Assembly: GCA_038063755.1 (NCBI GenBank) | Contig: JBBTUL010000012.1 | Span: 64,572-128,571 of the forward strand | DNA: 64,000 nt | Source: Patescibacteria group bacterium | GTDB taxonomy: Bacteria; Patescibacteriota; Minisyncoccia; UBA6257; 2-01-FULL-56-20 | Direction: 5' to 3' | In this document: positions 1,886 through 22,650 of the stretch, in pieces | How positions within the stretch are numbered: position 1 is the stretch's first letter | Layout of the letters: each line of letters starts with the position of its first letter | Program-made: the position numbers and the translations under genes | The notes under the pieces: model-generated | The model's input: only the letters and a program-made list of their open reading frames with translations | What the model was told of the DNA's origin: nothing | Databases searched by the model: none

Positions 1886-2515
1886 ATGGACTGGAGACTA
1901 CTTACGAGCGAAGAAAGAGGTATTTTTTCGCGGCTAAAAAACCCAGAGAAGGTTCAGGATTACTTAAATAATCTTGTACCGAAATCGAAGAGAGATGACG
2001 AAGACTATCTTTCTCCGCAACGCGTGCTCCAGGGAGCGCACGCCAACTGTTTTGAAGGAGCCTTGCTCGCGGCAGCGGCGTTCTGGTTCCACGGAGGAAG
2101 GCCGATCCTCCTTGATCTCGAACCAATTAGGGGAGACGACGCGCATGTGGTAGCTCTCTTTAAAAAGCATGGCGCGTGGGGAGCAGTTGGGAAGACGAAT
2201 CATGCTGTCCTGCGTTATCGCGAGCCGGTATATAAAACCCTCCGAGAGTTGGCGCTTTCATACTTTCATGAATATTTTTTAAACAATGGAAGGAAAACGC
2301 TCCGTACATATTCTTTTCCATTCGATCTTTCGAAAAAAAAGTACAGCGGGTGGGTAGTGGATAAGGGTGATTTGGGATGGATCGCGGCAGACCTGGAAGG
2401 CTCGACGCATAAAGATATCCTTCCTTCGAAAAACATGCGGATGCGGTTGGCCGAGCCGATCGAAATAAAAGCAGGAAAGATCGTGGAGTGGAGGAGCGGG
2501 CGACGTGTTCTATAG
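1886..2515 (+). CDS. Hypothetical protein (209 aa)
   Basis: Long ORF divergent from the P-type ATPase with a 48-bp shared upstream region; non-repetitive composition; no recognisable motif. Confidence 0.55.
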   Translation: MDWRLLTSEERGIFSRLKNPEKVQDYLNNLVPKSKRDDEDYLSPQRVLQGAHANCFEGALLAAAAFWFHGGRPILLDLEPIRGDDAHVVALFKKHGAWGAVGKTNHAVLRYREPVYKTLRELALSYFHEYFLNNGRKTLRTYSFPFDLSKKKYSGWVVDKGDLGWIAADLEGSTHKDILPSKNMRMRLAEPIEIKAGKIVEWRSGRRVL

Positions 2516-2771
2516 GTGGCGACCCTTCGGTTGTGCACTTCAGGGCCGCTAGGTTGGCTTTTTCCCTCGCTTCGAATACGTATAGCGGGAGGCGCCAATG
2601 GGTTCTCGTGTCGCGGCGACAAATCTTAGTTATCCACATCCACCTCCGACGTGGATGTCTTGCTTAAGCTATACTATAAGTAGCAACTCACAACTGAAAA
2701 CATCTCGATTATTGTCCGCTTAGCGGACTTCCATAATAGGGCTCCTTTTTCGAGGGGCCCGAAACATTTTT

Positions 2772-3539
2772 ATGCGTTTTTTCTTGCAATTATTACGACA
2801 AGGCGGGAGAATGATAGGTGAGCAAATGATCGAGATATCACGTCTTACTAAAATTTATGCTGGCCGGCGCGTTGTGGACGGTCTTTCTTTTTCTGTGCAA
2901 AAAGGAAGGGTTTTTGGATTCCTGGGGCAAAATGGAGCCGGAAAGACGACGGTAATCAAGGTTGTGGTTGGCATCTCTTTGTCGGATGAGGGGTGCGTGA
3001 GAATAGAAGGACTTCCGGCCGGAGATGTTGCGATAAAAGAAAAGATAGGCTTTATGCCGGAAGCTCCCTATTTTTATGCTCGACTCACCGGACTCGAATT
3101 TCTTCGTTTTTGCGGAGATCTTTTTCGCAATCGTAGATCGAAAGACACAGCATCACATGAGGAACTACTAAAAGAGGTTGGAATATACGAAGCACGGGAC
3201 AAGCGCATTTCCACCTATTCGAAGGGCATGAAGCAAAGGCTCGGGTTCGCTCAGGCCCTAGTAAACGACCCCGACTATGTCTTCTTAGACGAACCACTTG
3301 ATGGCCTTGATCCTATCGGAAGAAGGGAAATAAAAGAAATAATCAAAAGACTCAAGACGCGCGGAAAGACGATCTTTTTTAACTCGCACATCCTCTACGA
3401 CACGGAGGAGCTTTGCGATGATGTTGGCATCATACACGAAGGAAAGCTACTTTATTCGGGGCCGGTCAAAGAGTTTTGTGCTGGACGACCTCTTGAGGCG
3501 GCATTTATTAATACCATTGAAGCTGTTTCGAGAACATGA
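2772..3539 (+). CDS. ABC transporter ATP-binding protein (ABC-2 exporter type)
   Basis: Walker A GQNGAGKTT, ABC signature YSKGMKQRLGFAQAL, Walker B VFLDEPLDGLD; probable true start at an internal Met near 2811. Confidence 0.9.
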   Translation: MRFFLQLLRQGGRMIGEQMIEISRLTKIYAGRRVVDGLSFSVQKGRVFGFLGQNGAGKTTVIKVVVGISLSDEGCVRIEGLPAGDVAIKEKIGFMPEAPYFYARLTGLEFLRFCGDLFRNRRSKDTASHEELLKEVGIYEARDKRISTYSKGMKQRLGFAQALVNDPDYVFLDEPLDGLDPIGRREIKEIIKRLKTRGKTIFFNSHILYDTEELCDDVGIIHEGKLLYSGPVKEFCAGRPLEAAFINTIEAVSRT

Positions 3540-4294
3540 ACTCAATTTGGGTTATCGCGAAAAATACATTTAAGGAGGCGATTCGAGACAGAATTCTTTA
3601 CGGCATCTTGGGCTTTGCGGTTTTTTATCTGCTAACCGATCTTTTTTTTGCAAGGCTTGCTCTGGGCGACGTGTCGATGGTGAAGAGCTTTGGTCTCGCC
3701 GGAATATATGTATGCGGCGTTGTCGTCACTGTTTTTTTGGGAGCATCCGTTCTCTATAAAGAGATCGAATCGCGAACGCTTTATTTTGTTATTTCTAAAC
3801 CCGTTACGAGAGCGGAGATAGTTCTCGGAAAGTTTTTTGGGTTGTTTGCCGCGATTGCGCTTACCATCTCTGCGATGGCCGCAATTTATCTTGGTGTCGT
3901 TGGATACGAGGCGAGGGAGTTCGACATGCTCGGACTTCTCGCAATCCTCTTCGAGCTTTTTGAGATGGGATTTTTCGTCGCACTGCTTCTTTTCTTTTCG
4001 TCTTTTGCAAGCCCGCTTACCGCGACCATCTATTCCTCGATCCTCTTGTTTTCGGGGCATCTTCTAGAGCTTGTCCTTGAAAACGCCGCGCAAATCGGAG
4101 GAATCACGCTCAGGCTTGTTTCTGGGGCATATTATATCCTCCCAAACCTCGAAAAGTTCAACATTCGCGGCCTTGCCGCGCATCATACAATGATATCCTG
4201 GCCAGTCGGAATTTCTGTTTTTGTGTACGCCGTAGCGTATAGCACACTGCTTCTATATTTCGCAATCATATGCTTCAAGCGAAGAGAGCTTTAG
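3536..4294 (+). CDS. ABC-2 family transporter permease
   Basis: ATGA start/stop overlap with the upstream ATPase gene; six predicted hydrophobic TM segments. Confidence 0.8.
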   Translation: MNSIWVIAKNTFKEAIRDRILYGILGFAVFYLLTDLFFARLALGDVSMVKSFGLAGIYVCGVVVTVFLGASVLYKEIESRTLYFVISKPVTRAEIVLGKFFGLFAAIALTISAMAAIYLGVVGYEAREFDMLGLLAILFELFEMGFFVALLLFFSSFASPLTATIYSSILLFSGHLLELVLENAAQIGGITLRLVSGAYYILPNLEKFNIRGLAAHHTMISWPVGISVFVYAVAYSTLLLYFAIICFKRREL

Positions 4295-5109
4295 GAAGAA
4301 GACTGCTTATGGCTTGCGGGGTCGTGATTTTTGCTGTGGCCATTCCCGTCGCGCAGAGCGTGCACGATTCTTTTGTCGTTCGAGCACCGAAGGTAATTGA
4401 CTTCACGCCGCTTTCGTTTATTAAGGTATTCGACCTAGGACTTCACGAAGCCGTCGCGGCAATTCGGTGGGTGTCTCTTCGTTCCGACATGCCCCTGGTG
4501 CCGGACGGGTATGAAAAACTTGACTACGAGATCCGACTTATAAATAGCCTTGATCCAAGGTTTTCACAGCCATACTATTTTTCTACAATCGTTCTTCCGG
4601 AGATTCAGAAACATCCGTATCGTGTGCAGGCGGCGGTCGAGGTCGGGAAGCGGGGAGTTAGGCTTTCGGAGCCGGATTGGCGTGTGCCATTCTATCTAGG
4701 AGCCGTGAATCATGTTTACCTGCGCGATCGCGGAGAGGCCGCAAAGTATTTCGATCTTGCAGCCCAGACCACCGGCATACCAGAGTCCATTCGGCGATTT
4801 TCTCTCGGTTACGGCATAGCCCCAAAGTCGCGAGGCGAAATGAAAGAGATTTGGCTCGCGATAGAAGCTGGAGCGAATGATAAGGATACGAAGAAGCGAG
4901 CAGAGATGCATATTCGGCATCTGGAAATCATCGAGCTTTTACAAGACGCAGTTTCGACTTATCGGGAAGAAACAGGCAGCTTTCCGAGCGCCGTTGAAGA
5001 TTTGGTAAAAGAAGGGTTTATCGCAGAAGTTCCCAAGAGTCCTTTCGGGCTCAACTTTTTTATCTACGAAGGAGGACTTATTGGAATCAAACCGCTTTCG
5101 AGCGGATAG
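4270..5109 (+). CDS. Hypothetical membrane-anchored protein (279 aa), third gene of the ABC operon
   Basis: N-terminal TM segment (LLMACGVVIFAVAIPVA); overlaps the permease stop; same strand. Confidence 0.5.
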   Translation: MLQAKRALGRRLLMACGVVIFAVAIPVAQSVHDSFVVRAPKVIDFTPLSFIKVFDLGLHEAVAAIRWVSLRSDMPLVPDGYEKLDYEIRLINSLDPRFSQPYYFSTIVLPEIQKHPYRVQAAVEVGKRGVRLSEPDWRVPFYLGAVNHVYLRDRGEAAKYFDLAAQTTGIPESIRRFSLGYGIAPKSRGEMKEIWLAIEAGANDKDTKKRAEMHIRHLEIIELLQDAVSTYREETGSFPSAVEDLVKEGFIAEVPKSPFGLNFFIYEGGLIGIKPLSSG

Positions 5110-5230
5110 AAAAGAGACCCTGCTTATTGCGCTGCCCTGGTCTTCTATGGCATAGTAACGGAAGTATTTTTTTCGTTCTTTTACATTTCGCCGCTAGGCG
5201 ATATATATCACTAAAAACAACACAAACTCT

Positions 5231-5779
5231 ATGAAAAAAACCACAATTCTGTTTGTTTTTGGAGCGATTTTTGCCATATCAATCTTTGCGGGGCCACAAG
5301 GAGCCCGCGCCGCGGACGGAGCATCGGCAATTACCCCAGAACAAGCAGCGACACTTAAAACAGCCCTCGATATTCTCGGGAAAACTCTCGACATCCTTGA
5401 GGCAAGGGTCGCCGAAGAATTAGTCCCCGAGGCTCAAATCTCTCCCACCAAGCAAACGCTCGGCACGCTTCGCGGGAGCTTGGTGGCGCTCAACACGCTT
5501 CTCGTGCAAGGAGGGGCTTCGGCATTTGCAGTTGAGACCGGAAAGACCCTTCCCGCAGAAACTTCCGTGACGAACGTTCCCGTGGACGCTGGATCGGTTG
5601 TTGTGGGGATGGACAAGGCCTCGCAAGCGGAGAGTGTTCAGACTGCGTCCTTGTTCGATACGGTAAAAACGAGAAAAGGAAGAGCTGCGGCAGTCGCAGT
5701 ATTTCTCGTGCTCGGCGCGCTTTGTCTCGTCGGGGTTGAATATTTTCGACACCGCGTACGTCCGCTTCGGACGATCTAG
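5231..5779 (+). CDS. Secreted Ala-rich protein with C-terminal TM anchor and basic tail
   Basis: Signal peptide MKKTTILFVFGAIFAISIFAGPQGARA; C-terminal AAAVAVFLVLGALCLVGV + EYFRHRVRPLRTI; followed by a terminator. Confidence 0.6.
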   Translation: MKKTTILFVFGAIFAISIFAGPQGARAADGASAITPEQAATLKTALDILGKTLDILEARVAEELVPEAQISPTKQTLGTLRGSLVALNTLLVQGGASAFAVETGKTLPAETSVTNVPVDAGSVVVGMDKASQAESVQTASLFDTVKTRKGRAAAVAVFLVLGALCLVGVEYFRHRVRPLRTI

Positions 5780-5819
5780 ACGAAAACAAAGATCCCGCAT
5801 ACAGCGGGTTTTTTGTTTG
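5747..5819 (+). repeat. 73-bp direct repeat copy 1 (last 12 codons of the 5231-5779 gene plus its terminator)
   Basis: cgacaccgcgtacgtccgcttcggacgatctagacgaaaacaaagatcccgcatacagcgggttttttgtttg recurs at 7363-7435 with about 5 mismatches. Confidence 0.8.
5794..5819 (+). terminator. Rho-independent terminator
   Basis: Hairpin cccgc-ataca-gcggg followed by TTTTTTGTTT. Confidence 0.7.
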
Positions 5820-5838
5820 AAGAAACCGGCGTAGTTTC

Positions 5839-7104
5839 CTATTTATCCGTTCCTTGACCAGTCTCCGGATCTTGGTATGGACTGAACGTAAGGGTTATAT
5901 CAAGCATTTGGGCCGCGCGCTCAAGTTTTTTTATAAATTTTTCCTTTGAGCCTTTTTCTTTCATGATGAGCGAAACATCTCCGCTTAAAGCCCTAGAAAC
6001 CGCCTTTTCCGAATAAGGAGAAACGACTCGCGCGTGAGCCTTTCGATACTCATCGAGAGCTAGTTCGTACTTTTTTTCTATTTCAGGAGAAACAATCTCT
6101 CCTTTGGACTTTTTCCTCATGACATAATAGAGTCCCGACCCAGGGCTTTCTTTGGAAATCTTTGGGTCAAGAGAAAACTCCCATACGCCGGAGGGATCGA
6201 CAACGGCTCCTTTCACCTCCGCATCGTATCCTTCTTTGCTTATAACGTTTCCGAAAAAGTCAAAGATGTCCGGCGCGGAAGGCGGAAGAATGAGCGGTGG
6301 CAGTTTTCCTTCCTTCGCGTTTTGCGTATACGACCGTACGTCGTCTTTCGTTTTTGTTTCTAATCGCATCGCCCCGCGCCACGATTCGTATTCGTCGCTT
6401 GTCATGAGCTCCTCCCATGCCGAGAAAGAGTGGTTGTGGACAGAAATAAATTGATCTATGGCTTCCGTGTATCCTTCTTTAACGACAAGGTCTACGAGCT
6501 TTTCGGTGTCAATATCAATACTTGCCGTATTCCCCTGTACGTAGGCAAGGAGGCGAGTGTTTGCTTCCGGCTTCTTCGCGAGAACGATGAGCCATTCATG
6601 TTCTGCATTTTTTGCAAGAGCCCTAAAGTCTCCTTCAAGTACGGTTTTATAATTTCCCGAAAATCCCCCTTGACCTCGTTCCGAAATGCGACTTATCGCG
6701 CTTTCTCCGCTATCGGTCCCGGAATACTCTCGGCCGCCGCCCATCGTTTGCGCTCCTATTTCTCCTGCCGAGAAAAGCATACCAAGCAGCGCAAGCGCCT
6801 TTATTTTTTTCCGGAGAACTTGAGCGCGCTCCCTGATTCGCGAGAGAGTACTCAATATGCCGCCTGTTTCAGCAAGCCGCTCAACGTCATTTCGGGGAAG
6901 GTTGCTTGCCCGAAATGCCTCTTCCAGGAACAAGTCATTATTTCCTAGAATATCCAAAGAAAGCTCCATTTTTTCCATTCTTCTGGCAACGTCGAGACCA
7001 AGCTCCGGTTCATGGGCGCGCTCGCCCTCGCACGCTTCCGAAGGCATTATTGATGGGTGTTCAGCGTGCATTTGATGGGGTGATTTTTTTCCCTTTTTCG
7101 ACAA
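5839..7104 (-). CDS. Hypothetical protein (421 aa); probably continues upstream into ORF 7063-7224 through an A7-tract frameshift
   Basis: Long ORF with an internal TM segment (ALALLGMLFSAG). An upstream out-of-frame ORF (MLAQNKKIAEKNAVALSRILQKYEDELRLIKDEERVLLLSLVEKGKKITPSNAR) joins this frame exactly if one A of the gggaaaaaaatca run is removed. Confidence 0.55.
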   Translation of the reverse strand: MSKKGKKSPHQMHAEHPSIMPSEACEGERAHEPELGLDVARRMEKMELSLDILGNNDLFLEEAFRASNLPRNDVERLAETGGILSTLSRIRERAQVLRKKIKALALLGMLFSAGEIGAQTMGGGREYSGTDSGESAISRISERGQGGFSGNYKTVLEGDFRALAKNAEHEWLIVLAKKPEANTRLLAYVQGNTASIDIDTEKLVDLVVKEGYTEAIDQFISVHNHSFSAWEELMTSDEYESWRGAMRLETKTKDDVRSYTQNAKEGKLPPLILPPSAPDIFDFFGNVISKEGYDAEVKGAVVDPSGVWEFSLDPKISKESPGSGLYYVMRKKSKGEIVSPEIEKKYELALDEYRKAHARVVSPYSEKAVSRALSGDVSLIMKEKGSKEKFIKKLERAAQMLDITLTFSPYQDPETGQGTDK

Positions 7105-10269: not shown

Positions 10270-12954
10270 ATGACACAATCATGGTATTCCTTTTCACTAG
10301 AGGAAACATTCAACAAGCTAGGAAGTTCCGATCGGGGCCTCTCTTTTGATTTAACGAAAGAACGACTCAAACAATACGGCGCAAACAGCCTCCCCGAGGA
10401 AAAGCCGCGCTCAAAACTACGGCTCTTTTTAGGCCAGTTCCAAAGTCCACTTATCTATATTCTTCTTGCCGCAAGTGCGGTCGTTTTCGCTTTGGGAGAA
10501 ACTGTTGATGGCTCAATCATTCTTGCCGTTCTTCTCTTCAACGCCATTGTCGGTGTCATTCAGGAAGGCAAGGCTCAAAACACGCTCCTTGCTCTGAAAA
10601 AATTTGTAGAGACAAACGCGACAGTTCTTCGTGACGGCAAAGAATACATTATTCCCGATCACGAGGTGGTCCCGGGTGATATTGTCCTTCTCCAGGAAGG
10701 AGAGCGTATCCCTGCCGATGCTCGGGTTGTTGCATCTCAAAGCCTAAGGGTAGACGAAGCATCTCTTACCGGAGAATCCGAGCCAATATACAAAAGCGTT
10801 GAAGCGCTAGAGCGTAATGATCTACCCACAGCGGAACAAAAGAATATGGTCTTCAAGGGTACTCATATAGTTGCCGGACATGGCCGAGCGGTTGTTGTTG
10901 CTACTGGTCTCTCCACGGTCATTGGCGGGATTGCAAAACAAATTTCATCCATAGACACGGAGATTCCGCTCAAGGCAAACATCAGGTATCTCTCAAGAGC
11001 AATTATCGCCACGGTGGCAACAATCAGCACGGTGCTATTTATTGTTGGTGTTTTTATGGGCCATACCGCCAAGGAAATGTTTACGACCGTCGTTTCGCTT
11101 TCCGTTTCAATCATTCCCGAAGGTCTTCCTATCGTGATGACGCTGGTCCTTGCCACAGGAGTTTGGCGAATGTCAAAACGGAACGCACTTGTTAAAAAAC
11201 TCCAGGCAGTTGAAGCTTTGGGGCAAGCGCGGGTCATCGCGGTAGACAAAACAGGAACCATTACCAAAAATGAACTTGTTGTCCGCAAAGTATGGACCGC
11301 CGACAGGTTGTTTGAGATTGGTGGTGTTGGCTATGAGCCTAAAGGGGACATTAAGCTTGGGGGAAATGCTGTTGACGCGGCAAATCAAGATGATCTCCTG
11401 TATCTTGGAAAAGCAGCTGCTTTTGTTGCGACCGCACGGCTCTCGTACGCGGAAGAAACAAAAGAATGGAGAATTTCTGGAGACCCGACTGAGGCCGCTA
11501 TGCTCGTTTTTGCCGAGAAGGCAGGTTTTAATAAGGAAGATCTTCTACGGGAATCCCCCCTGTTATCGGAAATTCCTTTTGACTATAAGTTAAAATATCA
11601 CGCCACCGTTCATCAGGTTGGCGAGAAGTCACTTTTAACCGTTGCCGGAGCGCCAGAAATAGTACTTGCTCTTTGTGGCGATATCGGGCGCGGAGGTAAG
11701 AATCATTCTCTTTCGAAAAGGGAAAAAGAAGAGCTTGAAGCGACATTTGCGCGCATGTCCGAAGAAGGCCTTCGGGTCATAGCGGTTGCGGTTCGTCATG
11801 ATGCTCCAAAACAACTGAACACAGACTCCATCAACTCGCTTTCTTTCGTTGGTTTCTTTGGTATGCAGGATACGCTTCGACCAGAAGTGAGGAAAGCAAT
11901 AAGTCGCGCGAAAGAAGCTGGCATCAGAGTGGTCATGATTACTGGCGATCACAAGATAACCGCTCGGGCTATTGCCAAGGAAGCCGGAATATACCAAGAG
12001 GGGGATACGGTTTTGACCGGAGATGAGATTGAATCAATGCATGACGCCCAGCTTGCCGATAAGCTTGCGGGAACGACCGTATTTGCAAGAGTGACACCGG
12101 AGCACAAGATGCAAATCATCAATGCCTACAAAAGACGAGGCGAGATCGTAGCCATGACCGGAGACGGAGTTAACGATGCACCGTCGCTAGTCGCTGCTGA
12201 CCTTGGGGTATCCATGGGGAAAATCGGTACCGAGGTGGCGAAAGAAGCTTCGGATATCATTTTACTTGACGATAACTTCGGGAGTATTGTTTCGGCGATC
12301 GAGGAGGGAAGGAGTATTTACAAAACAATTAAAAAGGTCATTCTCTATCTTTTCTCGACCAGCACCGGAGAAGTGCTCGTGATTTCGGGCGCACTATTTC
12401 TTGGGTATCCATTGCCAATTCTCGCGGCACAAATTATCTGGCTCAACTTTGTAACAGACGGATTTCTTGATGTAGCTTTGGCTATGGAGCCCAAAGAGAA
12501 AGGACTGCTGGCAGGCACGTTTGAGCATCCCAGAAAATACCTCGTTGATTCGTTGATGCTCCAAAGAATGGCTGTCATGGCGATACCGATGATGTTTGGA
12601 ACCCTCTTTCTCTTTAACCAATACTTTGACACCGACATTGCAAAGGCATGGACAATTTCACTCACCACACTCGCAGTCTTTCAATGGTTCAACGCTTGGA
12701 ACTGTCGCTCTGAGAATAGATCAATCTTCGGTATGGAGTGGTTTTCAAATAAATATCTTGTTGGGGCAACTCTGGTGGTCGTCGCACTTCAGATGGCAGC
12801 GTTATACACCCCGATCATGCAAACGATTCTTCGCACCACGCCGCTTACGCCCTCCGAGTGGCTCATGATCATACCCGTTGCAGCTTCGATAATCGTTGTT
12901 GAAGAAGTCAGGAAGTTTTTCTATCGTAGGAGGTCCCGGCTCTTAAATACCTAA
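10270..12954 (+). CDS. Cation-transporting P-type ATPase (P2-type, Ca2+-ATPase-like)
   Basis: 894 aa; TGES, DKTGTITKNE, TGDHKITARAIA and AMTGDGVNDAPSL motifs; ten predicted TM helices. Confidence 0.92.
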   Translation: MTQSWYSFSLEETFNKLGSSDRGLSFDLTKERLKQYGANSLPEEKPRSKLRLFLGQFQSPLIYILLAASAVVFALGETVDGSIILAVLLFNAIVGVIQEGKAQNTLLALKKFVETNATVLRDGKEYIIPDHEVVPGDIVLLQEGERIPADARVVASQSLRVDEASLTGESEPIYKSVEALERNDLPTAEQKNMVFKGTHIVAGHGRAVVVATGLSTVIGGIAKQISSIDTEIPLKANIRYLSRAIIATVATISTVLFIVGVFMGHTAKEMFTTVVSLSVSIIPEGLPIVMTLVLATGVWRMSKRNALVKKLQAVEALGQARVIAVDKTGTITKNELVVRKVWTADRLFEIGGVGYEPKGDIKLGGNAVDAANQDDLLYLGKAAAFVATARLSYAEETKEWRISGDPTEAAMLVFAEKAGFNKEDLLRESPLLSEIPFDYKLKYHATVHQVGEKSLLTVAGAPEIVLALCGDIGRGGKNHSLSKREKEELEATFARMSEEGLRVIAVAVRHDAPKQLNTDSINSLSFVGFFGMQDTLRPEVRKAISRAKEAGIRVVMITGDHKITARAIAKEAGIYQEGDTVLTGDEIESMHDAQLADKLAGTTVFARVTPEHKMQIINAYKRRGEIVAMTGDGVNDAPSLVAADLGVSMGKIGTEVAKEASDIILLDDNFGSIVSAIEEGRSIYKTIKKVILYLFSTSTGEVLVISGALFLGYPLPILAAQIIWLNFVTDGFLDVALAMEPKEKGLLAGTFEHPRKYLVDSLMLQRMAVMAIPMMFGTLFLFNQYFDTDIAKAWTISLTTLAVFQWFNAWNCRSENRSIFGMEWFSNKYLVGATLVVVALQMAALYTPIMQTILRTTPLTPSEWLMIIPVAASIIVVEEVRKFFYRRRSRLLNT

Positions 12955-13052
12955 GCGTTTTTTGTTTCGGGCTGCGCGTGGTTAAACAAACGACTGGGTA
13001 AATAAAAATACCCCCATGAGGTTGGGGGCCTTGCGTTGAAGCAACGAATAAT

Positions 13053-13298
13053 CTATCGCGCTTGGCTTTCGGCCAAGAAGCGATTGCTGTGAATCTCGAT
13101 GAGCATTACCCACAGCGCGTGGATTGCGTCGGCATCGTTGTCCTTTGGCAGGATCGAAGCCACATGATGGTACCACGAGCGCTTACGAATGCTTCCCATG
13201 TCGCCATCACCCAAGCAATCAACGAGCTCGGCAAGTTCGTCTACGGTCAGACTACTAACGGCTTCCTGAATGGATGGTGCGGCTAGCGCTGTTTTCAC
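13053..13298 (-). CDS. Hypothetical small acidic protein (81 aa)
   Basis: GTG start (rc of 13296-13298) preceded by SD AAGGAG with a 6-nt spacer. Confidence 0.5.
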   Translation of the reverse strand: MKTALAAPSIQEAVSSLTVDELAELVDCLGDGDMGSIRKRSWYHHVASILPKDNDADAIHALWVMLIEIHSNRFLAESQAR

Positions 13299-13396
13299 AA
13301 CGAGCTCCTTTATGACCAGAAACTAGACATATAATGCCCGACAACGCTTGTTGCGTCAAACTCGAGTGATAATGCGCACGCACATATGGCAGGTTT

Positions 13397-13541
13397 TTTC
13401 TCTCGCGTGGTTTACCACGAGTGAGTCCCGCTAAAGCGGGACGAAAATATGCCCCTCGAATTCCTCGGGGCACTCGATTCGTAATGTGGTTTACCACGAG
13501 TGAGTCCCGCTAAGGCGGGACGAATCGAGTGGAGATGGAGG
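13397..13541 (+). repeat. ssrA-flank repeat copy A: two tandem hairpin modules (gtggtttaccacgag...cccgctaaRgcggga) ending in gtggagatggagg, the complement of the tmRNA 3' terminus
   Basis: About 95 percent identical to 15925-16070, which lies directly downstream of and overlapping the ssrA 3' end. After the 13-nt core the copy diverges into catggccgctcgg, which is shared with the copy at 15490-15502. Confidence 0.85.
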
Positions 13542-13892
13542 CATGGCCGCTCGGTAACCCTCGCTATGCACTTCCTATATATCCGTCGCCCTTGGCGACT
13601 TTAGTTTCGGAGGTCGGGACCCGAACCAAGGTTCGCCCTCGTCGGCCCCGCCTCTGGCGGGGCACGTGTTTCGTAATACAAAACCTCCTGACGAGCAGGA
13701 GGTTTTGTTAACTACAACAGCGCGGAGTGTCTCCGGACAACTGGCGAACTCTGATAGATAGGATTTTTATGTTTATGCAAAAATAAAAGAGCCATCACGG
13801 GTGGTAGGCAACGACCCTCTCGTTTTCTACCCGTGACGGCTGATTGTTTATCTGAGTACCGAAACCACTATATGTCCAGGGTCATATTTTAC

Positions 13893-14141
13893 TCAGGGAA
13901 CTCCCAGGCGTGGGTCGTCTCGGTGAGTGAAAGTCGGGACGTAGCTAATTATTGGTGGGCGACCAACCACGTTGGCTCGGATGTGGATAGTGACGGCATT
14001 GTCGTCCGCCGAGCAAACAATGTCTGCGACCGCATCCTCGCGGTCCCACCCATGCACCACAAGCGCGATCTTGTGTGCGGCGCTCACGGCCTTCGCGAGC
14101 TTGTTGGGTGATGCGGTGATTCGCAACGACTGGATTCTCAT
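13893..14141 (-). CDS. Hypothetical small protein (82 aa)
   Basis: ATG (rc of 14139-14141) preceded by SD AAAGGAG with a 7-nt spacer; the overlapping plus-strand ORF 13833-14111 has no RBS and was rejected. Confidence 0.4.
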   Translation of the reverse strand: MRIQSLRITASPNKLAKAVSAAHKIALVVHGWDREDAVADIVCSADDNAVTIHIRANVVGRPPIISYVPTFTHRDDPRLGVP

Positions 14142-14358
14142 CACAAACTCCTTTTCAAGGTGCAGAAGGAGTCCCGGTATTGGGACCCTCCCTTGAATGG
14201 TCATGCACTCAAGGGAACGTCCAATACCAAAAAACCCGCCGGAAAGGCGGATTTCTTGGTATTTACTTACTTGCTGTTAAACCAAATTATCCCGCCTTCC
14301 GATATGCCGGGCGCGGGGACGGGGAAACGATGTTGGAATGGATGTGAATCATTACTAG

Positions 14359-15402
14359 GTGACTATAGCCTTTGTCATAGTAAATGTCAAGAAAATATGC
14401 GCGAAAGTTCGCTCTTCCGTCCAAAAGAGAAGAGCTTTAATTGGGAATTGGATCGACGAGCGGGATAGCGGAGCGGCTTGGCGAGGGCATTCTGTGCGCG
14501 ATATACTTAACTTATATATGAGAGAAGTGTTAAAAAATCACCTAGGTTCCGCGGTGGTCGTTTCTCTTGTGGTCGTTGGCCTTCTCGGACTTTTCATATC
14601 CATCTCTTTGCTGAGAGATCGGATAGGCGCAGGAACAGATGGCGAGGGCATCAAGGACTGGAAGACATATAAGAGCGAGGAGTATGGGTACCAATTTCAA
14701 TATCCAGCGGACTGGTTTTTTGAAGATGACGAGATGGGGGGCAACGTGAGTATTAGAAATTATGCCGAAGAAAAAGACAAGGACAACAAAGAATCAGTCA
14801 TTCTCAATCTACAAGCTCACACCAAACCTTTTTACACAGACCTTTTTTCGCTTGCAGAGCAGGATCTTGATTCGCCGAGCGAGCTCGATGGATCTCTGGT
14901 TGGTGGCGTGCCAACAAGAAAAGAGATCCGCGGGCTTCCGGTTGTGATGACCGAACGGTCCGTTGTATTTTGGGGAGAAGGACCTGGTTATTACATTGAA
15001 AAAGACACGGAACACTTTATTTATGCAATAATCTCTAAAAAAGAGTACCCGGAGGTGGTTGATCAAATTATTTCAACAATCAAGTTTTCAAGCTCTGTTC
15101 AAAACCCCGATCCCGTAAAAAGTTTTCTTTCGGCGGCACCAATAGGATATCAGTGGACCGCGACTCTCGACTGGGACAACTCCGTTGTTTCAAAATGTCT
15201 CGTTAGGGAAAACGAAGAGGAGATAAGCGATGGGACATATGAGCAGATGAGGGCCGTAAGTCCACCGGTGGGATATCGATGGACAACGACGCAAAAGATT
15301 TTTCCTTCTGGCGAAAATGTAAACGTCGGTCTGTGCCTTTTGAGAATAGCTTGTCCAGATGGGAAAGTTCCGAACAGCAAGTCGTGCATAGTGCCAAGGT
15401 AG
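14359..15402 (+). CDS. Hypothetical secreted or membrane-anchored protein; likely true start at internal Met 14518 (MREVLKNHLGSAVVV...)
   Basis: N-terminal signal-anchor (AVVVSLVVVGLLGLFISISLL) followed by a ~270-aa hydrophilic domain; no recognisable enzymatic motif. Confidence 0.55.
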   Translation: MTIAFVIVNVKKICAKVRSSVQKRRALIGNWIDERDSGAAWRGHSVRDILNLYMREVLKNHLGSAVVVSLVVVGLLGLFISISLLRDRIGAGTDGEGIKDWKTYKSEEYGYQFQYPADWFFEDDEMGGNVSIRNYAEEKDKDNKESVILNLQAHTKPFYTDLFSLAEQDLDSPSELDGSLVGGVPTRKEIRGLPVVMTERSVVFWGEGPGYYIEKDTEHFIYAIISKKEYPEVVDQIISTIKFSSSVQNPDPVKSFLSAAPIGYQWTATLDWDNSVVSKCLVRENEEEISDGTYEQMRAVSPPVGYRWTTTQKIFPSGENVNVGLCLLRIACPDGKVPNSKSCIVPR

Positions 15403-15476
15403 TTCTCGGGCCTCCGGCGCTGGCACCGCTGTGAGCAGCGAAGCCCCGAGGCAATTTCTTTAACAAATTCGGAATG

Positions 15477-15502
15477 GTGGAGATGGAGGCATGGCCGCTC
15501 GG
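15477..15502 (+). repeat. Third copy of the ssrA 3'-terminal 13-mer plus shared 13-nt extension (gtggagatggagg-catggccgctcgg)
   Basis: Exact 26-nt match to 13529-13554; on the minus strand it reads ...GCCUCCAUCUCCACCA, ending in an encoded CCA. Confidence 0.8.
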
Positions 15503-15526
15503 CGGGCAGAGGCGGATCGCCGCACC

Positions 15527-15793
15527 CTATAGCTTTGTTGACAAATCCTTTTTATATCTTTCGATCAAGACCTCCTTTTTGTCCCTGCGCCACTTTTTGA
15601 TCTGAATTTCCCTTCGGCGTGCTTCGACTAATGTGGGGTATTTTTCCTGAAACACCACGCTGAACTTTGCTTTACCCTTTGTGAATTGAGCGCCTTGATG
15701 CGCGTTATGGTAGTAAATACGGGTATGCGGATTGGCCGTGACACCAACATACAATTTCCCGAAGTCGTTTTTGATCATGTAAACGTAGTACAT
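15527..15793 (-). CDS. GIY-YIG nuclease family small protein
   Basis: N-terminus MYYVYMIKNDFGKLYVGVTANPHTRIYYHN matches the GIY-YIG signature (YVY...YVG...R...H/N); 88 aa, similar to UPF0213 / YhbQ-type proteins. Confidence 0.8.
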   Translation of the reverse strand: MYYVYMIKNDFGKLYVGVTANPHTRIYYHNAHQGAQFTKGKAKFSVVFQEKYPTLVEARRREIQIKKWRRDKKEVLIERYKKDLSTKL

Positions 15794-15924
15794 GCAACAA
15801 GCTTAGCGCGAGGGCGTAAAAAATTTCTAAAACCAACCTGCCCATTCGACTTATCGCCTGCAGTGAGCGCAGGCGAACCGCTCAGGGCACTCGACTCAAA
15901 AGAAAACGCCAAAATGGCGTTTTC

Positions 15925-16070
15925 TTTTTCTCTCGCGTGGTTTACCACGAGCGAGTTTCGCTAAGGCGGGACGAAAACATGCCCCTCGAATTCCTCGGGG
16001 CACTCGATTCGTAATGTGGTTTACCACGAGTGAGTCCCGCTAAGGCGGGACGAATCGAGTGGAGATGGAG
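15925..16070 (+). repeat. ssrA-flank repeat copy B (immediately downstream of the tmRNA; last 11 nt overlap the ssrA 3' end)
   Basis: Direct repeat of 13397-13541; each copy contains two hairpin modules with stems gtgg/ccac and cccgc/gcggg. Confidence 0.85.
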
Positions 16071-16412
16071 GGAATCGAACCCTCGTCTAAAGGTGGGATC
16101 AGTGAATCGTCTACGAGCGTAGATTAGCCGAAGCTAAACGGATTGCCTCGCGTGTTTTACTCCGGTGCGGCAAGGCGGTACATCCGGAGCGAGCCTCCTT
16201 ATATGAGACCGGTTATGAATCGAAGAGGCGCCGATTCGCCGATCCTCTCGCTTCCAGCGGATTGCCAGAAGGGGAGAGTTCTCAAGCTTACGCAAAAGCG
16301 AAAGCCGGAGCTGCAACGCGTTGGTTGGCAGTTATCGTTTTTTGTCGGTTTTACAAGACAACGCTTGGCTCGCAAATCCATGAACCATCTCTATCGAAGC
16401 CAGTGCATCCCC
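16060..16412 (-). ncRNA. ssrA: tmRNA (SsrA)
   Basis: Minus-strand RNA GGGGAUGCACUGGCUUCGAUAGAGAUGG......GACGAGGGUUCGAUUCCCUCCAUCUCCA. The 5' GGGGAUG pairs with the 3' CAUCUCC, the T-arm is GAGGG-UUCGAUU-CCCUC, and the discriminator is A with no encoded CCA. Predicted tag ORF GCC AAC CAA CGC GUU GCA GCU CCG GCU UUC GCU UUU GCG UAA gives (A)NQRVAAPAFAFA. It lies 10 nt downstream of smpB. Confidence 0.85.
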
Positions 16413-16421
16413 AAAGATGGA

Positions 16422-16859
16422 TTATAGTCTTCTCGCTATGTCGCGCTCTATCGCGCGCTTTTTTAAAAGATCTCGCTTGTCCTTCTGCTTTCGCGAGCGT
16501 CCGAGTCCTAGCTCGAGCTTTATGAGTCCTCGCTTCGGATATGCTTTGAGGGGAACGAGGGTCAGGCCTTTTTCCTCGAGGCGTCCCGAGAGCATCTTGA
16601 TTTCTTTTTTCTGGATCAAGAGCTTCCGCGTGCGGGTGGAGTCATATCCCTCCGGTGCGTTTTTCGGTTGATACGCCGGAATCTTGGCGTTTGTAAGCCA
16701 GAGCTCTCCCGCGCGGATCAAGCAGTAGCTCCCTGGGAGCTCCATACGACCCTCCTTCACGCTCTTTACCTCGTACCCGTAGAGTTCAATGCCCGCTTCG
16801 AGCGTCTCAAGCATATCATAGTCAAATCTCGCCCGACGATTTTCCGCAAATGGAGCCAT
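16422..16859 (-). CDS. smpB: SsrA-binding protein SmpB
   Basis: 145 aa; FAENRRARFDYDMLETLEAGIELYGYEVKSVKEG matches the conserved SmpB N-terminus; adjacent to ssrA. Confidence 0.92.
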   Translation of the reverse strand: MAPFAENRRARFDYDMLETLEAGIELYGYEVKSVKEGRMELPGSYCLIRAGELWLTNAKIPAYQPKNAPEGYDSTRTRKLLIQKKEIKMLSGRLEEKGLTLVPLKAYPKRGLIKLELGLGRSRKQKDKRDLLKKRAIERDIARRL

Positions 16860-19077: not shown

Positions 19078-22000
19078 TTGCAGTTCATGTGTGTCATCGG
19101 TATGATTACTCGTACGTATCAAATGTTTACCGAAGAAGGGCCATTTAGCCTGCCAAAGCTTGAGGAAAAAGTTCTTGAGTTTTGGAAAAAGAAGGGTATT
19201 TTCGAAAAAAGTCTTATCGCAAGAAAAGGAAAGAAAAGCTTCGTTTTTTATGAAGGGCCGCCCACCGCAAACGGCAGGCCGGGCATTCACCACGTGCTTG
19301 CCAGATCGTTTAAAGACATCATTCCCCGCTATCGGACGATGCGTGGTTATTTCGTTGAGCGAAAGGGTGGGTGGGATACCCACGGCCTCCCCGTCGAGCT
19401 TGAGGTAGAAAAGAAGCTTGGTCTTAAATCTAAAAAAGAGATCGAAGAATACGGCATTGCGGAGTTCAATAAAAAATGCCGAGAATCGGTTTGGCAATAC
19501 AAAGACGAGTGGGAGCGCCTTACGGAGCGGATGGGTTTTTGGATCGACCTGAAGAACCCATATATTACTTACGAGAATAAATACATAGAGACGCTCTGGT
19601 GGATCATCAAGAAGTTTTTCGAAAAGGAGCTTATGTATCTTGGGCACAAAGTTGTGCCGTGGTGCTCGCGATGCGGCACAGCGCTTTCTTCCCACGAACT
19701 CGCTCAAGGGTACAAAGAAGTCGAAGATCAGTCGGTATACATCAAGTTCAGGTTGAAGCATGGGCAAAAGGTTGGCGAATGGATCACGACAGATCACACC
19801 TATATCCTTTCTTGGACGACGACACCCTGGACGCTTCCTGGAAACGTTGCACTTGCTGTGGGGAGGGATATTGAGTACAAAGCGATCGAAACAGCCGATG
19901 GAGAGGTTTTAATTTTTGCAAAAGACAGAGAGGGGACGCTTGGAGTTTCAGGAAGAGAAGTCGCGACAATTTCCGGCGAAAAACTTCTCAATCTTGAGTA
20001 TTTCCCGCTTTTCAACATCCCAGCACTTCAGACGCTTCGTTCATATCGAGTTTATCCGGCTGACTTTGTTACGACCACAGACGGCACCGGCGTCGTGCAC
20101 ACTGCCGTAATGTATGGAGAAGATGATTATCAGCTGGGTGCCTCCGTAGGGCTTCCGCAGCACCACACCGTGACCGAAGAGGGAATCTTCACTTCTGACA
20201 TCACGAAGCTGGGCGGGTTATACGTGAAAGATCCTGAAGCGGAAAAAAGAATATTTGACCATCTGACAAAAAACAACAATCTTTTGCGCGCAGAGACATA
20301 TAAGCATGAATACCCACACTGTTGGCGTTGCAGCACCCCGCTTCTTTACTACGCGCGCAGCTCATGGTTCGTTTCGATGTCAAAGCTTCGCACCGAGCTT
20401 TTGCGCAGGAATAAAAAAATAAACTGGACACCAGAGCACATCAAAGAGGGAAGATTTGGCGAGTGGTTGAAAGAGGCTAAAGACTGGAATTTCTCTCGCG
20501 AAAGATATTGGGGGACGCCCTTGCCGATATGGCATTGCGAGTCCTGCAAGTCGAGGTTTGTGCCGGGGAGCATGGAGGAGCTTATTAATGCAGATTATTT
20601 CAGAAATACATTTTACCTGCTGCGACACACAGAAGCTGAGCATGTGGTAAAAAAGCTTCTAGCATACGGCCCGGAGACCGACGAGACCAACACGGCGCAT
20701 CTTACTTCAAAAGGGCGAAAAGAGGCGGAACAGATTGCAAAAAAACTTGGGAAGCAAAAATTTGCTGCGATCTACGCCTCGCCATATGCGCGAACGAAAG
20801 AGCTCGCCGAATTGATTCACAAAGAAACAGGTGCGCCTCTTTTCCTGGATGATCGTCTTGGCGAGCTAAACGTAGGAACATTTGCCTGGCACCCAATAAA
20901 AGAATTCGGGAAGTATTTTAAAAACAGCCTCGAACGATTTACCGAGAAGCCGGAGGGGGGTGAAAGCTTGCGCGATGTGCGAGCGCGAGTCATGCGCGCG
21001 GTTCTTGATATCAACAAGCGATACCGCGGAAAGGAAATTCTTATTGTTGGACACGGAGATCCGCTCTGGATGCTTGAGGCCGCGATGAAGGGTGTGTCCG
21101 AGGAAGAAGCACTCAAAATGCCGTATATCGAACTCGGGGAGACGAGGAAGGTCGCGTTGCGCAATCTACCATACGACGAATCCGGGCAAGTTGATCTTCA
21201 CCGCCCCTATGTAGATGAGCTTTTTCTCGGCTGCGCGAAATGCCACGGGAAGATGGTTCGCGTAAAAGAGGTGGCCGATGTATGGTTCGATTCCGGCTCA
21301 ATGCCGCTTGCGCAGAGTCATTATCCGTTCGAACAAGGACCAAAGAATAAACAAAAAACGGATACGGCAGGAGATGTTTCTCGGGCGACATTCCGCGCCC
21401 TTTCATATCCGGCAGACTTTATATCCGAGGCGATGGATCAAACGCGCGGATGGTTCTATACGCTTCTTGCGGTCGCAACGGCGCTTGGACTCGATGCGCC
21501 ATACAAAAATGTTATTTCGTTGGGGCTGATCCACGACAAGTTTGGGCAAAAAATGTCTAAGTCGAAGGGAAATGTTGTTGATCCGTGGATTATGATGGAA
21601 AAGTATGGTGTCGACGCGGTTCGCTGGTATTTTTATACTTCAACGCCGGCCGGCGAGCCGAAAAATTTTGACGAAGTGGATGTCGGGAAGTCATTTCGTA
21701 AATTTCACGCGATCATCTGGAATTCGTTGGTATTTTACCGGACGTATGCTTCAAAGCACCCAGCGGTGATTGTCAGACCGAAACACATTTTAGACCGATG
21801 GATTCTTGCTCGGCTAAATGACACTATTGCGAAAACGATTCGGGCGCTTGACGCCTATGAAGTTAGAGAAGCCGGACTTGCGCTCGAGGCATTTACCGAC
21901 GACCTTTCTCGCTGGTACATCAGACGCTCCCGTCGCCGCTTTCAAAAGCCGATAAGCCAAGCGGACTACCGCGAAGCAACGGGAACGCTAAAGCTCATCC

Positions 22001-22650
22001 TCCTCGATCTTTCGAGGCTCATCGCTCCGTTTAGCCCATTTTTCGCCGAGGGAATATACGAAGGAATTACCGAGGGAGATCGCGGGAAGAAAGAGTCGGT
22101 GCACCTAGAGAATTTTCCGACTCCCAAGCGGAACTTGATTGACCGGAGACTACTTCGCTCCATGGAAGACGCTCGTCGTGTTTCAAGCCTTGGACTTGCG
22201 AAGCGTGCCGAGATCGGCATCAAGGTTCGTCAGCCACTCGCCCTGCTCACCGTAAGGGACGGCGGATCAGTTCGAACAAATAAAGATTTGCTTGTGATCG
22301 TGAAAGAAGAAGTGAACGTAAAGGCGATGAAGTTCGACAAAAATATTTCCGATGAGCTGGTTTACGACACCGTAATTACCCCTGAGCTTAAAGCCGAGGG
22401 GTTGATCCGCGAGATAACGCGCGCGGTGCAGGATTTGAGGCAAGAGACCAAGCTTTCGCCAAAAGAGGGTATTGTTCTTGTGCTTGATGTACCAAAAGAA
22501 GTCGCTCGTATGCTCATTGGGGCAGAAAAAGTTTTTTCCAAAGAAGTTGGTGCGGTTGCGCTTGAATACGGGCGAGAGAAAAAACTCGACGCAGAAGCAG
22601 AGATAAAAACAGACGAAGGAATTTTGCGGATCGGTATACGGAGGGCATAA
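19078..22650 (+). CDS. ileS: Isoleucyl-tRNA synthetase (type 2) with an inserted histidine-phosphatase (PGAM-like) domain
   Basis: HIGH-region PPTANGRPGIHHVLARSF, IleS signature WTTTPWTLPGNVALAV, KMSKSKGN, zinc-knuckle pairs CWRCSTP / CESCKSR / CAKCHGK. Residues ~507-700 (nt ~20590-21180) read LRHTEAEH...LTSKGRKEAEQIAKKL...IYASPYARTKELAELI...GESLRDVRARV...ILIVGHGDPLWML. This is collinear with the stand-alone histidine phosphatase at 61204-61746 (RHGETDFN...GKTQANDLADML...IFSSPLKRARKTADVI...GESATEVKSRL...VILVTHGGIIRLL). Total length is 1190 aa; the start codon is uncertain (19078, 19102 or 19123). Confidence 0.9.
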   Translation: MQFMCVIGMITRTYQMFTEEGPFSLPKLEEKVLEFWKKKGIFEKSLIARKGKKSFVFYEGPPTANGRPGIHHVLARSFKDIIPRYRTMRGYFVERKGGWDTHGLPVELEVEKKLGLKSKKEIEEYGIAEFNKKCRESVWQYKDEWERLTERMGFWIDLKNPYITYENKYIETLWWIIKKFFEKELMYLGHKVVPWCSRCGTALSSHELAQGYKEVEDQSVYIKFRLKHGQKVGEWITTDHTYILSWTTTPWTLPGNVALAVGRDIEYKAIETADGEVLIFAKDREGTLGVSGREVATISGEKLLNLEYFPLFNIPALQTLRSYRVYPADFVTTTDGTGVVHTAVMYGEDDYQLGASVGLPQHHTVTEEGIFTSDITKLGGLYVKDPEAEKRIFDHLTKNNNLLRAETYKHEYPHCWRCSTPLLYYARSSWFVSMSKLRTELLRRNKKINWTPEHIKEGRFGEWLKEAKDWNFSRERYWGTPLPIWHCESCKSRFVPGSMEELINADYFRNTFYLLRHTEAEHVVKKLLAYGPETDETNTAHLTSKGRKEAEQIAKKLGKQKFAAIYASPYARTKELAELIHKETGAPLFLDDRLGELNVGTFAWHPIKEFGKYFKNSLERFTEKPEGGESLRDVRARVMRAVLDINKRYRGKEILIVGHGDPLWMLEAAMKGVSEEEALKMPYIELGETRKVALRNLPYDESGQVDLHRPYVDELFLGCAKCHGKMVRVKEVADVWFDSGSMPLAQSHYPFEQGPKNKQKTDTAGDVSRATFRALSYPADFISEAMDQTRGWFYTLLAVATALGLDAPYKNVISLGLIHDKFGQKMSKSKGNVVDPWIMMEKYGVDAVRWYFYTSTPAGEPKNFDEVDVGKSFRKFHAIIWNSLVFYRTYASKHPAVIVRPKHILDRWILARLNDTIAKTIRALDAYEVREAGLALEAFTDDLSRWYIRRSRRRFQKPISQADYREATGTLKLILLDLSRLIAPFSPFFAEGIYEGITEGDRGKKESVHLENFPTPKRNLIDRRLLRSMEDARRVSSLGLAKRAEIGIKVRQPLALLTVRDGGSVRTNKDLLVIVKEEVNVKAMKFDKNISDELVYDTVITPELKAEGLIREITRAVQDLRQETKLSPKEGIVLVLDVPKEVARMLIGAEKVFSKEVGAVALEYGREKKLDAEAEIKTDEGILRIGIRRA

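Follow-up and report, generated by a model that had tools for sequence, protein, structure and literature searches.

We analyzed the surroundings of the transfer-messenger RNA (tmRNA) gene ssrA in a 64,000-nucleotide stretch of the genome of a Patescibacteria group bacterium (assembly GCA_038063755.1, contig JBBTUL010000012.1, positions 64,572–128,571 of the forward strand), referred to below as the window. Downstream of ssrA, the window carries displaced copies of the end of this gene, copies of a structured element, and a gene for a small GIY-YIG nuclease. The element belongs to a conserved family that is tied to the 3' ends of RNA genes and to one clade of GIY-YIG nucleases and that has a patchy spread.

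Organization of the ssrA locus

The gene smpB (16422–16859, minus strand; Pfam SmpB, 8.3e-48) was found immediately upstream of ssrA (16059–16412, minus strand), which was predicted by ARAGORN, was matched by the Rfam tmRNA model (RF00023, 16057–16412, 120.7 bits), and encodes the tag ANQRVAAPAFAFA. CCA was not encoded: ssrA ends with ...CTCCAC, followed at once by TCGATTCG. The last 13 nt of the gene (CCTCCATCTCCAC on the gene strand, GTGGAGATGGAGG on the plus strand), here called the core, were present in exactly three copies, all on the minus strand and identified by sequence match. Core copy 1 (16059–16071) is the true ssrA 3' terminus and spans exactly the interval from the T-loop TCGATTC to the first TCGATTC of the structured element; copies 2 and 3 were located at 15477–15489 and 13529–13541. 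The expected number of copies was 0.08, and three were reached in 0 of 100 shuffles. The first-pass annotation, made from the sequence alone, had recognized the same three copies, although its coordinates for the first (16058–16070) were off by one.

Another 13-mer, P (plus strand CATGGCCGCTCGG), adjoins the two distal cores only, as had also been claimed, forming identical 26-mers at 13529–13554 and 15477–15502. The P copy at 13542–13554 (minus strand, sequence identity) is the same as the one that ends the proximal cassette. Among the loci collected, neither P nor the 15-mer P+CC was found outside this genome, all matches lying in copies of the same genome. The idea that P and the core are a piece of a tRNA-like gene was rejected, because ARAGORN calls nothing there. 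The G+C content of 13542–15924, proposed earlier as a check on foreign origin, was 0.45–0.55, the same as in the flanks; the insert showed no compositional anomaly.

The block repeat that the first-pass annotation had put at ~130 bp was a direct repeat of 147 nt (13395–13541 and 15925–16071; spacing 2530) with 97% identity and no indels. The 83 nt nearest to ssrA were 100% identical, every mismatch falling in the remaining 64 nt, and each 147-nt block comprises two copies of a 39-nt unit, 79 nt apart. Counting from ssrA, the order was as follows: core, M1 (units u1 and u2, terminator, GIY-YIG gene, and P-core), M2 (with P-core at its end), M3 (u1 and the 5' part of u2), and an open reading frame (ORF) of 81 aa. 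Each unit starts after ...CCAC, and P-core terminates both M1 and M2.

M1 (15477–16058) is an intact cassette. Its unit u1 (15981–16058, minus strand) is a compact element of the T-type, matched by our covariance model R1 at 15972–16062 (79.5 bits, E 3e-18); sequence reading gave the layout S TCGATTCG, hp1 TCCCGCCTTAGCGGGA, invariant hairpin CTCACTCGTGGTAAACCAC, S' CGAATCGAGTG, and P4 CCCCGAGGAATTCGAGGGGC. Unit u2 (15840–15977, minus strand), delimited by repeat comparison, sequence reading and folding, is of the C-type and has lost its 5' strand S. It contained hp1 and the invariant hairpin (15937–15975), a terminator-like hairpin with a T run (15898–15929), S' (GAGTCGAGTG, 15888–15897), and a long P4 (15840–15887), and was ~90% identical to the sole unit of the sister species L161. 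A stand-alone GIY-YIG nuclease of 88 aa, of the UPF0213/YhbQ type, was encoded downstream (15527–15793, minus strand; PF01541, 1.6e-15). The tail of M1 (15490–15526, minus strand) ends in P = CCGAGCGGCCATG (15490–15502), which is conserved in L161 and partly in another relative, L163; core copy 2, found at the same place in L161, closes the cassette.

M3 (13395–13528) consists of the structured element alone. Its orphan u1 (13451–13528, minus strand; R1 13442–13532, 80.7 bits, E 1.6e-18) was 100% identical to the u1 of M1 over bases 13459–13528. The adjoining 5' part of u2 (13395–13447, minus strand) ends exactly at the position where the terminator of M1 starts; it differs from its M1 counterpart at 5–6 positions, hp1 being intact in M3 and broken in M1. 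The 81-aa ORF after M3 (13053–13298, minus strand) is placed and oriented like the GIY-YIG gene of M1 but matched no family; a promoter-like site was noted near it (13331–13359).

M2 (13529–15476) holds two unrelated genes and probably represents a decayed generation of the cassette; its body (13555–15476), of which the first ~25 nt are common to L161, could be such a remnant or inserted DNA. The genes encode a putative secreted protein of 294 aa (14518–15402, plus strand) and a protein of 103 aa, or 82 aa (13893–14204, minus strand), preceded by divergent promoter-like sites at 14362–14507. These ORFs and the GIY-YIG gene, all listed in the first-pass annotation, were found to be real. A terminator hairpin was located at 13680–13706, and a possible relic of S' and P4 at 13646–13677 (17/20 match plus hairpin, E ~0.03). 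The 294-, 103- and 81-aa proteins had no homologues among all loci collected; for the 294-aa protein, Pfam and NCBIfam yielded merely a sub-threshold PsbP-like match. On the minus strand of 14228–14390, upstream of the 103-aa ORF, a near-consensus promoter-like sequence, TTGACA-17-TATAGT (11/12), preceded, by ~110 nt, a hairpin that resembles a terminator and has a T run. The interval could encode a small RNA or serve as an attenuator leader, and Rfam matches in this interval were sub-threshold only (OrzO-P, NrrF).

The structured element and its distribution

The ssrA loci of relatives were gathered via SmpB, and the tmRNA genes were then located in them. In three distant members of Paceibacteria (L030, L032, and L033; SmpB 47–52% identical), the same element and a GIY-YIG gene were found straight after ssrA, in the order CCAC-TCGAYTCG, variable hairpin, CTCRCTCGTGGYAARCCAC, variable insert, CGARTCGAGTG, short hairpin, and small GIY-YIG gene, the product of which was 56–65% identical to that of the window. 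A metagenome scan with the invariant 19-mer of the element gave, after removal of unrelated matches, at least 54 distinct instances: the element stood directly after a tmRNA gene in at least 24 loci and directly after a tRNA gene (Tyr, Ala, Phe, Ile or Leu) in at least 9, and the remaining listed instances had in front of them a short ...YCCAC resembling a displaced RNA-gene end. The metagenomes with the cassette were those of Patescibacteria, mostly from groundwater and sediment. Thus, the block next to ssrA, which had been taken for a native flank duplicated by integration, is a conserved structured element that lies beside tmRNA and tRNA genes in dozens of unrelated metagenomic loci. Some 23 soil-metagenome matches (L041–L115) proved to be a conserved coding sequence of soil bacteria (...GATGATAGAAATACC...CAACTCGTC plus the pattern), unrelated to the cassette. 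No matches to the invariant 19-mer were found in viral contigs.

The fold consists of a long-range helix of 11 bp (P1), in which CAC+TCGAYTCG pairs with CGARTCGA+GTG, and of a short covarying hairpin (P4) 3' of it. P1 encloses hp1, which is hypervariable and always perfectly paired, the invariant hairpin CTCRCTCGTGG-YAAR-CCAC, and usually an intrinsic-terminator hairpin. In an alignment of 27 instances P1 was 98% paired, a value inflated by the extraction of the distal strand, which demanded a near-complement, and P1 is variable at few positions; one of its pairs was C-G in 17 sequences and U-A in 10. Covariation was seen at 3/4 pairs of P4. In the true register, 95.8% of cells were paired, compared with 31–40% when the strands were slid, and RNAalifold independently recovered P1 and the invariant hairpin. 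The 40 distinct hp1 sequences contained 173 Watson–Crick pairs and 3 others, including one G-T and one A-C. Base pairs of P1, P4 and hp1 are thus kept by compensatory change across independent sequences. The fold of 15830–16075 had a z-score of −7.4.

Model R1 found exactly two full copies in the window, those of M1 and M3. On the SmpB-anchored loci, it recovered copies solely in L028, L030, L032, and L033, with a weak match in L010. A scan of 12800–16600 with Rfam 15 (E ≤ 1) gave, besides tmRNA, five sub-threshold matches of 8.7–26.7 bits (gathering scores 39–68), none of them credible; one, tmRNA_permuted at 15978–16084 (18.5 bits, gathering score 47), overlaps u1. No intron or ribozyme model of Rfam matched this interval.

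A segment of 33 nt of u1 (CGAATCGAGTGCCCCGAGGAATTCGAGGGGCAT; 15981–16013 and 13451–13483) was identical in an orphan element on an unrelated contig (L087, 1550–1582). Unit u1, which has no counterpart in L161, may spread on its own in the manner of a miniature inverted-repeat transposable element.

The GIY-YIG nuclease

Where enough downstream sequence was available, a GIY-YIG ORF lay within 400 nt of the element in 31 of the 49 listed instances. Three more had been missed by the script, one frameshifted (L054) and two owing to the ORF start (L063, L109), which brings the total to ~34/49. The encoded proteins form a tight clade of 34 members with conserved catalytic columns (Y, Y, R, H/N, and E) and a basic tail, ...REIQIKKWRRxKKE. 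Similarity placed the nuclease of the window in UPF0213 (PDB 1zg2_A, 9.2e-10, residues 2–78; 1ywl_A, 1.4e-7). A separate DNA-binding domain is absent from its 88 aa, the catalytic domain occupying residues 1–78. Since a dedicated UPF0213 clade follows the element in so many of the listed instances, the GIY-YIG gene is a hallmark of the cassette and not its cargo, the role assigned to it by the first-pass annotation. Our literature search, which covered GIY-YIG nucleases in connection with tmRNA genes, tRNA genes, Patescibacteria or the candidate phyla radiation, and UPF0213/YhbQ/COG2827, found no description of such a cassette.

A second UPF0213 type likewise adjoins tmRNA and tRNA genes. Its gene occupies a 290-nt segment between smpB and ssrA in L064 (7318–7651) that is absent from L097 (4425–4469). 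Upstream, the two loci were 85–89% identical; at the first base of ssrA, identity rose to 99.9% and stayed there over 4.2 kb, the nuclease gene thus coinciding with a recombination breakpoint. Among the 120 GIY-YIG homologues listed, most were on contigs shorter than 2.5 kb, suggesting that assemblies often break there (repeats or strain variation).

Comparison with related loci

In L161, the SmpB of which was 93% identical to that of the window and the tmRNA tag the same, the order was ssrA, one C-type element, GIY-YIG gene, ...CTGCCGAGCGGCCACG, CCTCCATCTCCAC, and then CGTTTTCCGATTTT. The proximal cassette, the flanking 13-mers (P being CCGAGCGGCCACG in L161), the CCGAGCGGCCA(C/T)G tail, and ~25 nt beyond are common to both genomes. 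L161 lacks u1, the third copy, M2 beyond those ~25 nt, and M3, and its sequence past the 25 nt differs. M1 with its flanking 13-mers, P, and the ~25 nt is therefore ancestral, so the proximal unit is not a recent integration; by the same comparison, u1, the rest of the middle segment, and the third copy are specific to the genome studied here. An ancestral arrangement, which the first-pass annotation had set against integration, was thus found for M1 and not for the rest. Its other counter-scenario, a dispersed repeat family unrelated to ssrA, fits insofar as the element is dispersed across genomes, yet it is bound to tmRNA and tRNA 3' ends.

L163 has the same cassette lineage, with the end CCGAGCAGCG...CCCTCCATCTCCAC. 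The trailing CCCTCCATCTCCAC is of the window's type, unlike the end of the tmRNA gene of L163 itself. Together, the tails of L161 and L163 indicate that cassettes of this lineage have P+core as their conserved right end. In L163, a 3.1-kb segment with a large serine recombinase separates ssrA from the displaced element and its GIY-YIG gene (2465–6300), so integrase-bearing DNA uses the same site in relatives as well. The recombinase has 559 aa and the domains Resolvase, Recombinase and Zn_ribbon_recom (PF00239, PF07508, PF13408), and its gene abuts or overlaps the tmRNA 3' end.

Occupancy was patchy: 4–5 of ~24 SmpB-anchored ssrA loci carried the element. In L014, L010 and L011 (SmpB 63–67% identical), ssrA is followed by a plain terminator; these are empty sites. 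In the empty-site comparison proposed earlier, such sites were thus seen in more distant relatives, and the sister species already holds M1 with the same repeats. At the strain level, contigs retrieved by exact match to SmpB, to the GIY-YIG protein or to the ATPase revealed no empty site but only the same arrangement, broken at the repeats. Among tRNA genes, a 358-nt cassette was inserted between tRNA-Tyr and tRNA-Thr of a Thr-Tyr-Thr-Trp cluster in L055, and the cluster of L019 had no cassette there. The identity of the window's GIY-YIG protein was 77% to L161 (SmpB 93%) and 71–73% to L162 and L163 (SmpB 53–57%), not tracking host distance.

L091 mirrors the window, with an RNA-gene end, element, GIY-YIG gene, unrelated ORF, ATTTCCAC, and diverged orphan element. 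Orphan or displaced elements were found downstream of ssrA in L087, L028/L074, and L116, and in L078 a different ssrA-end fragment was located 12 nt past the nuclease stop codon. The proposal that the distal 13-mers are ssrA ends displaced by insertions is supported by the same signature in all these ssrA or tRNA loci of other Patescibacteria and in L161 and L163.

Several further observations concern the boundaries of such inserts. In L116 (798–995) and L087 (471–668), an insert of ~190 nt directly after the tmRNA 3' end was bracketed by 19–20-nt repeats of the ssrA end, beginning in the T-loop. It contained a terminator and an inverted segment resembling the tmRNA 3' end, and its last bases in either locus were GCGACTTG(G)TA. 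The insert has the look of a miniature element that targets the tmRNA T-loop. Between the cassette and the next tRNA-Thr gene of L102 (2270–2420), fragments resembling tRNA 5' halves (GCCAGCGTAGCTCAATGGTAGA..., GCCGATGTAGCTCAGTGGTA...) were present, which suggests broken or duplicated tRNA genes beside the cassette. In L081 (2548–2575), the first 13 nt of the element, TCGACTCGTTCGC, occur again right after the GIY-YIG stop codon, so that the cassette is bracketed by its own 5' end.

Origin of the stacked arrangement

With moderate confidence, we read the locus as one type of cassette stacked three deep behind ssrA, with the nuclease acting in a homing-like manner. The cassette comprises the structured element, the ~88-aa UPF0213 GIY-YIG gene, and, in this lineage, the tail CCGAGCGGCCATG with the 13-nt copy of the ssrA end. 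The nuclease would cut tmRNA and tRNA gene ends free of the cassette, and repair would introduce the cassette along with a substitute for the 3' end; the old 3' end would be displaced downstream with everything behind it, and repetition of the process would build the stack. Three generations can be envisaged: M1 has remained intact, and the older two would have decayed, M2 losing the element and the nuclease and now holding two unrelated genes, M3 keeping the element only. The 83 identical nt beside 64 nt with all the mismatches fit partial gene conversion between M1 and M3. We infer a selfish element of the homing type; the inserting enzyme was presumably the GIY-YIG nuclease, or else an integrase acting in trans.

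Several points weigh against this interpretation. Cleavage and mobility are deduced from sequence comparison, and the RNA-gene end is repeated behind the cassette in a minority of loci only. The 88-aa nuclease is devoid of the DNA-binding module of known homing endonucleases, which leaves its target finding unexplained. The P common to the ends of M1 and M2 has the appearance of an integrase attachment arm. If M3 is old, the near-identity of the M1 and M3 elements needs gene conversion as an added assumption. All family loci were fetched with a pattern from the element, so the invariance of the hairpin is partly an effect of ascertainment. Folding energies showed no strand preference (the sense strand was more stable in 10/27 instances; p = 0.08 in the other direction), and hp1 is almost without wobble pairs; the element may act as RNA or as DNA.

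A rather unlikely alternative is tandem accretion driven by an integrase, in which M1 and M2 would be small integrase-less elements resembling cis-mobilizable elements, inserted successively by a tyrosine or serine recombinase that is encoded elsewhere or lost, with the 26-nt P+core as attachment site and the GIY-YIG cassette as a resident carried along. The identical ends of M1 and M2 (13-nt P, then 13-nt core) agree with it, and the distal P-core-u1 junction is exactly that of a tandem array or a circular form; the recombinase-bearing segment of L163, the inserts of L116 and L087 with their T-loop-starting duplications, a classical signature of tDNA islands, and the standing of tmRNA genes as well-known integration sites of islands (PMC4383910) point the same way. 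On the other hand, the first-pass annotation was right that no integrase is encoded in 13395–16071, and a search for recombinase Pfam domains in ORFs of at least ~150 aa found none in the 64-kb window either. P occurs nowhere else among the loci collected, and M1 is only ~0.57 kb long and vertically inherited in L161. The co-occurrence of one GIY-YIG clade and the element at tmRNA genes and at least 9 tRNA genes would also be left unexplained.

Distinctly improbable, in our view, is a host function, with the element as a 3' trailer or terminator for tmRNA and tRNA processing or for coupling to the downstream gene, the nuclease as a processing or repair enzyme, and the repeats as products of unequal crossing-over. 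The element does always start at the mature 3' end, its long helix takes in the terminal CAC, most copies have an embedded intrinsic-terminator hairpin, and the nuclease is conserved and intact; M3 is also followed by another small ORF in the same orientation, and the internal 79-nt duplication marks the locus as prone to slippage. These features have to be set against the patchy occurrence: the ssrA loci of most relatives have no element, and only one or few tRNA genes per genome carry it. Some copies are orphaned or decayed, one nuclease gene is frameshifted, the identity among the nucleases does not follow host distance, and the trailing ssrA fragment of L163 is of a foreign type. A mere artefact of assembly, with contigs mis-joined at the repeat or an excised circle or strain variant collapsed into the chromosome to produce the third copy, seems very improbable. 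Two short-read (SPAdes-type) assemblies of the same population do have contigs that end at 13459 and 13461, inside the distal repeat, and Logan contigs (k=31) likewise break within the repeats, so the join there is deduced from collinearity with the proximal copy and was not independently seen. Against this, the third 13-mer, the second 26-mer, and 83 nt of the distal repeat are on the same short-read contig as ssrA; the other contig ends in the neighboring stretch of the element, which is in register and bears substitutions specific to that copy; and comparable orphan copies exist on unrelated contigs, e.g., L091 and L087.

Returning to the homing-like stack, we can suggest, with more doubt than belief, that the cassette is a hitherto unrecognized kind of site-specific mobile element: the minimal UPF0213 protein may be directed to ...CCA(C) ends by the adjacent fold (RNA, single-stranded DNA or cruciform DNA), the helix of which includes the last bases of the target, which would amount to integrase-free homing that depends on a structure or a guide. 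If true, a fold-guided nuclease would be a new targeting principle for homing elements.

Other genes of the window

The isoleucyl-tRNA synthetase encoded at 19078–22650, like those of L001, L161, and L163 (1187–1218 aa), contained a His_Phos_1 domain (PF00300) between two tRNA-synt_1 segments, the insertion being conserved. The region ~32600–63600 encoded glycosyltransferases, sugar epimerases and dehydratases, methyltransferases, an O-antigen ligase-like protein, a carbamoyltransferase, an asparagine synthase, and a sugar transferase, making up a large surface-polysaccharide locus for a small genome.

Relation to known systems and implications

The locus is best regarded as a variant of site-specific selfish elements of a known kind, the cassette itself being undescribed in Rfam 15 and in the searchable literature. 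Genomic islands of the Islander/TIGER class integrate at the 3' ends of tmRNA and tRNA genes (PMC4383910, PMC11915505). The locus resembles them in insertion at the ssrA 3' end, regeneration of the gene end (ssrA is intact), a displaced 3' fragment at the far end, and tandem stacking, and the relative L163 has a recombinase-bearing segment at the same site. Unlike such islands, the cassette and the window lack an integrase, the unit is only ~0.57 kb with a constant content of element and GIY-YIG nuclease, and the displaced fragment is only 13 nt, accompanied by the second common 13-mer P.

SegB of phage T4 is a free-standing GIY-YIG homing endonuclease, the gene of which is located among tRNA genes (PMC2330249). 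The cassette shares with this type a GIY-YIG gene among tRNA-type genes, conserved catalytic residues, a patchy distribution with apparent transfer (L055 and L019, incongruence with SmpB), and signs of preferential inheritance or recombination (L064 and L097). It differs in that its nuclease is an 88-aa UPF0213 catalytic domain without a DNA-binding domain, in that a conserved structured element always separates the RNA gene from the nuclease gene, and in residing in cellular Patescibacteria and not in a phage. The nuclease agrees in sequence family and size with UPF0213/YhbQ/BH0048/EF2693 and the SLX1 nuclease domain (PDB 1zg2, 1ywl, 7wme), but in the searchable literature we found nothing that connects UPF0213 proteins with tRNA or tmRNA 3' ends or with a structured element.

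Elements of the IS200/IS605 type insert immediately 3' of a fixed short sequence and have conserved subterminal hairpins; the cassette resembles them in these respects, the fixed sequence here being ...CCAC, and most of its copies show no target duplication. In contrast to them, it has no HUH (TnpA) or TnpB gene, encodes a GIY-YIG protein, and is located nearly exclusively at RNA-gene ends. Group I introns with homing endonuclease genes reside in the tmRNA T-loops and tRNA genes of Patescibacteria (PMC11915505, PMC13011429). These selfish elements are likewise associated with tmRNA and tRNA genes of the same phylum; the cassette, unlike them, lies after the mature 3' end and not within the gene, and it matches no intron or ribozyme model.

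Islands in tmRNA genes are routine; this locus instead exposes a compact, recurrent cassette of Patescibacteria. It adds a new structured-motif family to the catalogues of non-coding RNAs and mobile elements and may explain why assemblies of these small genomes break at tmRNA and tRNA loci. For UPF0213, a widespread family of unassigned function, it provides a genomic context and a testable role.

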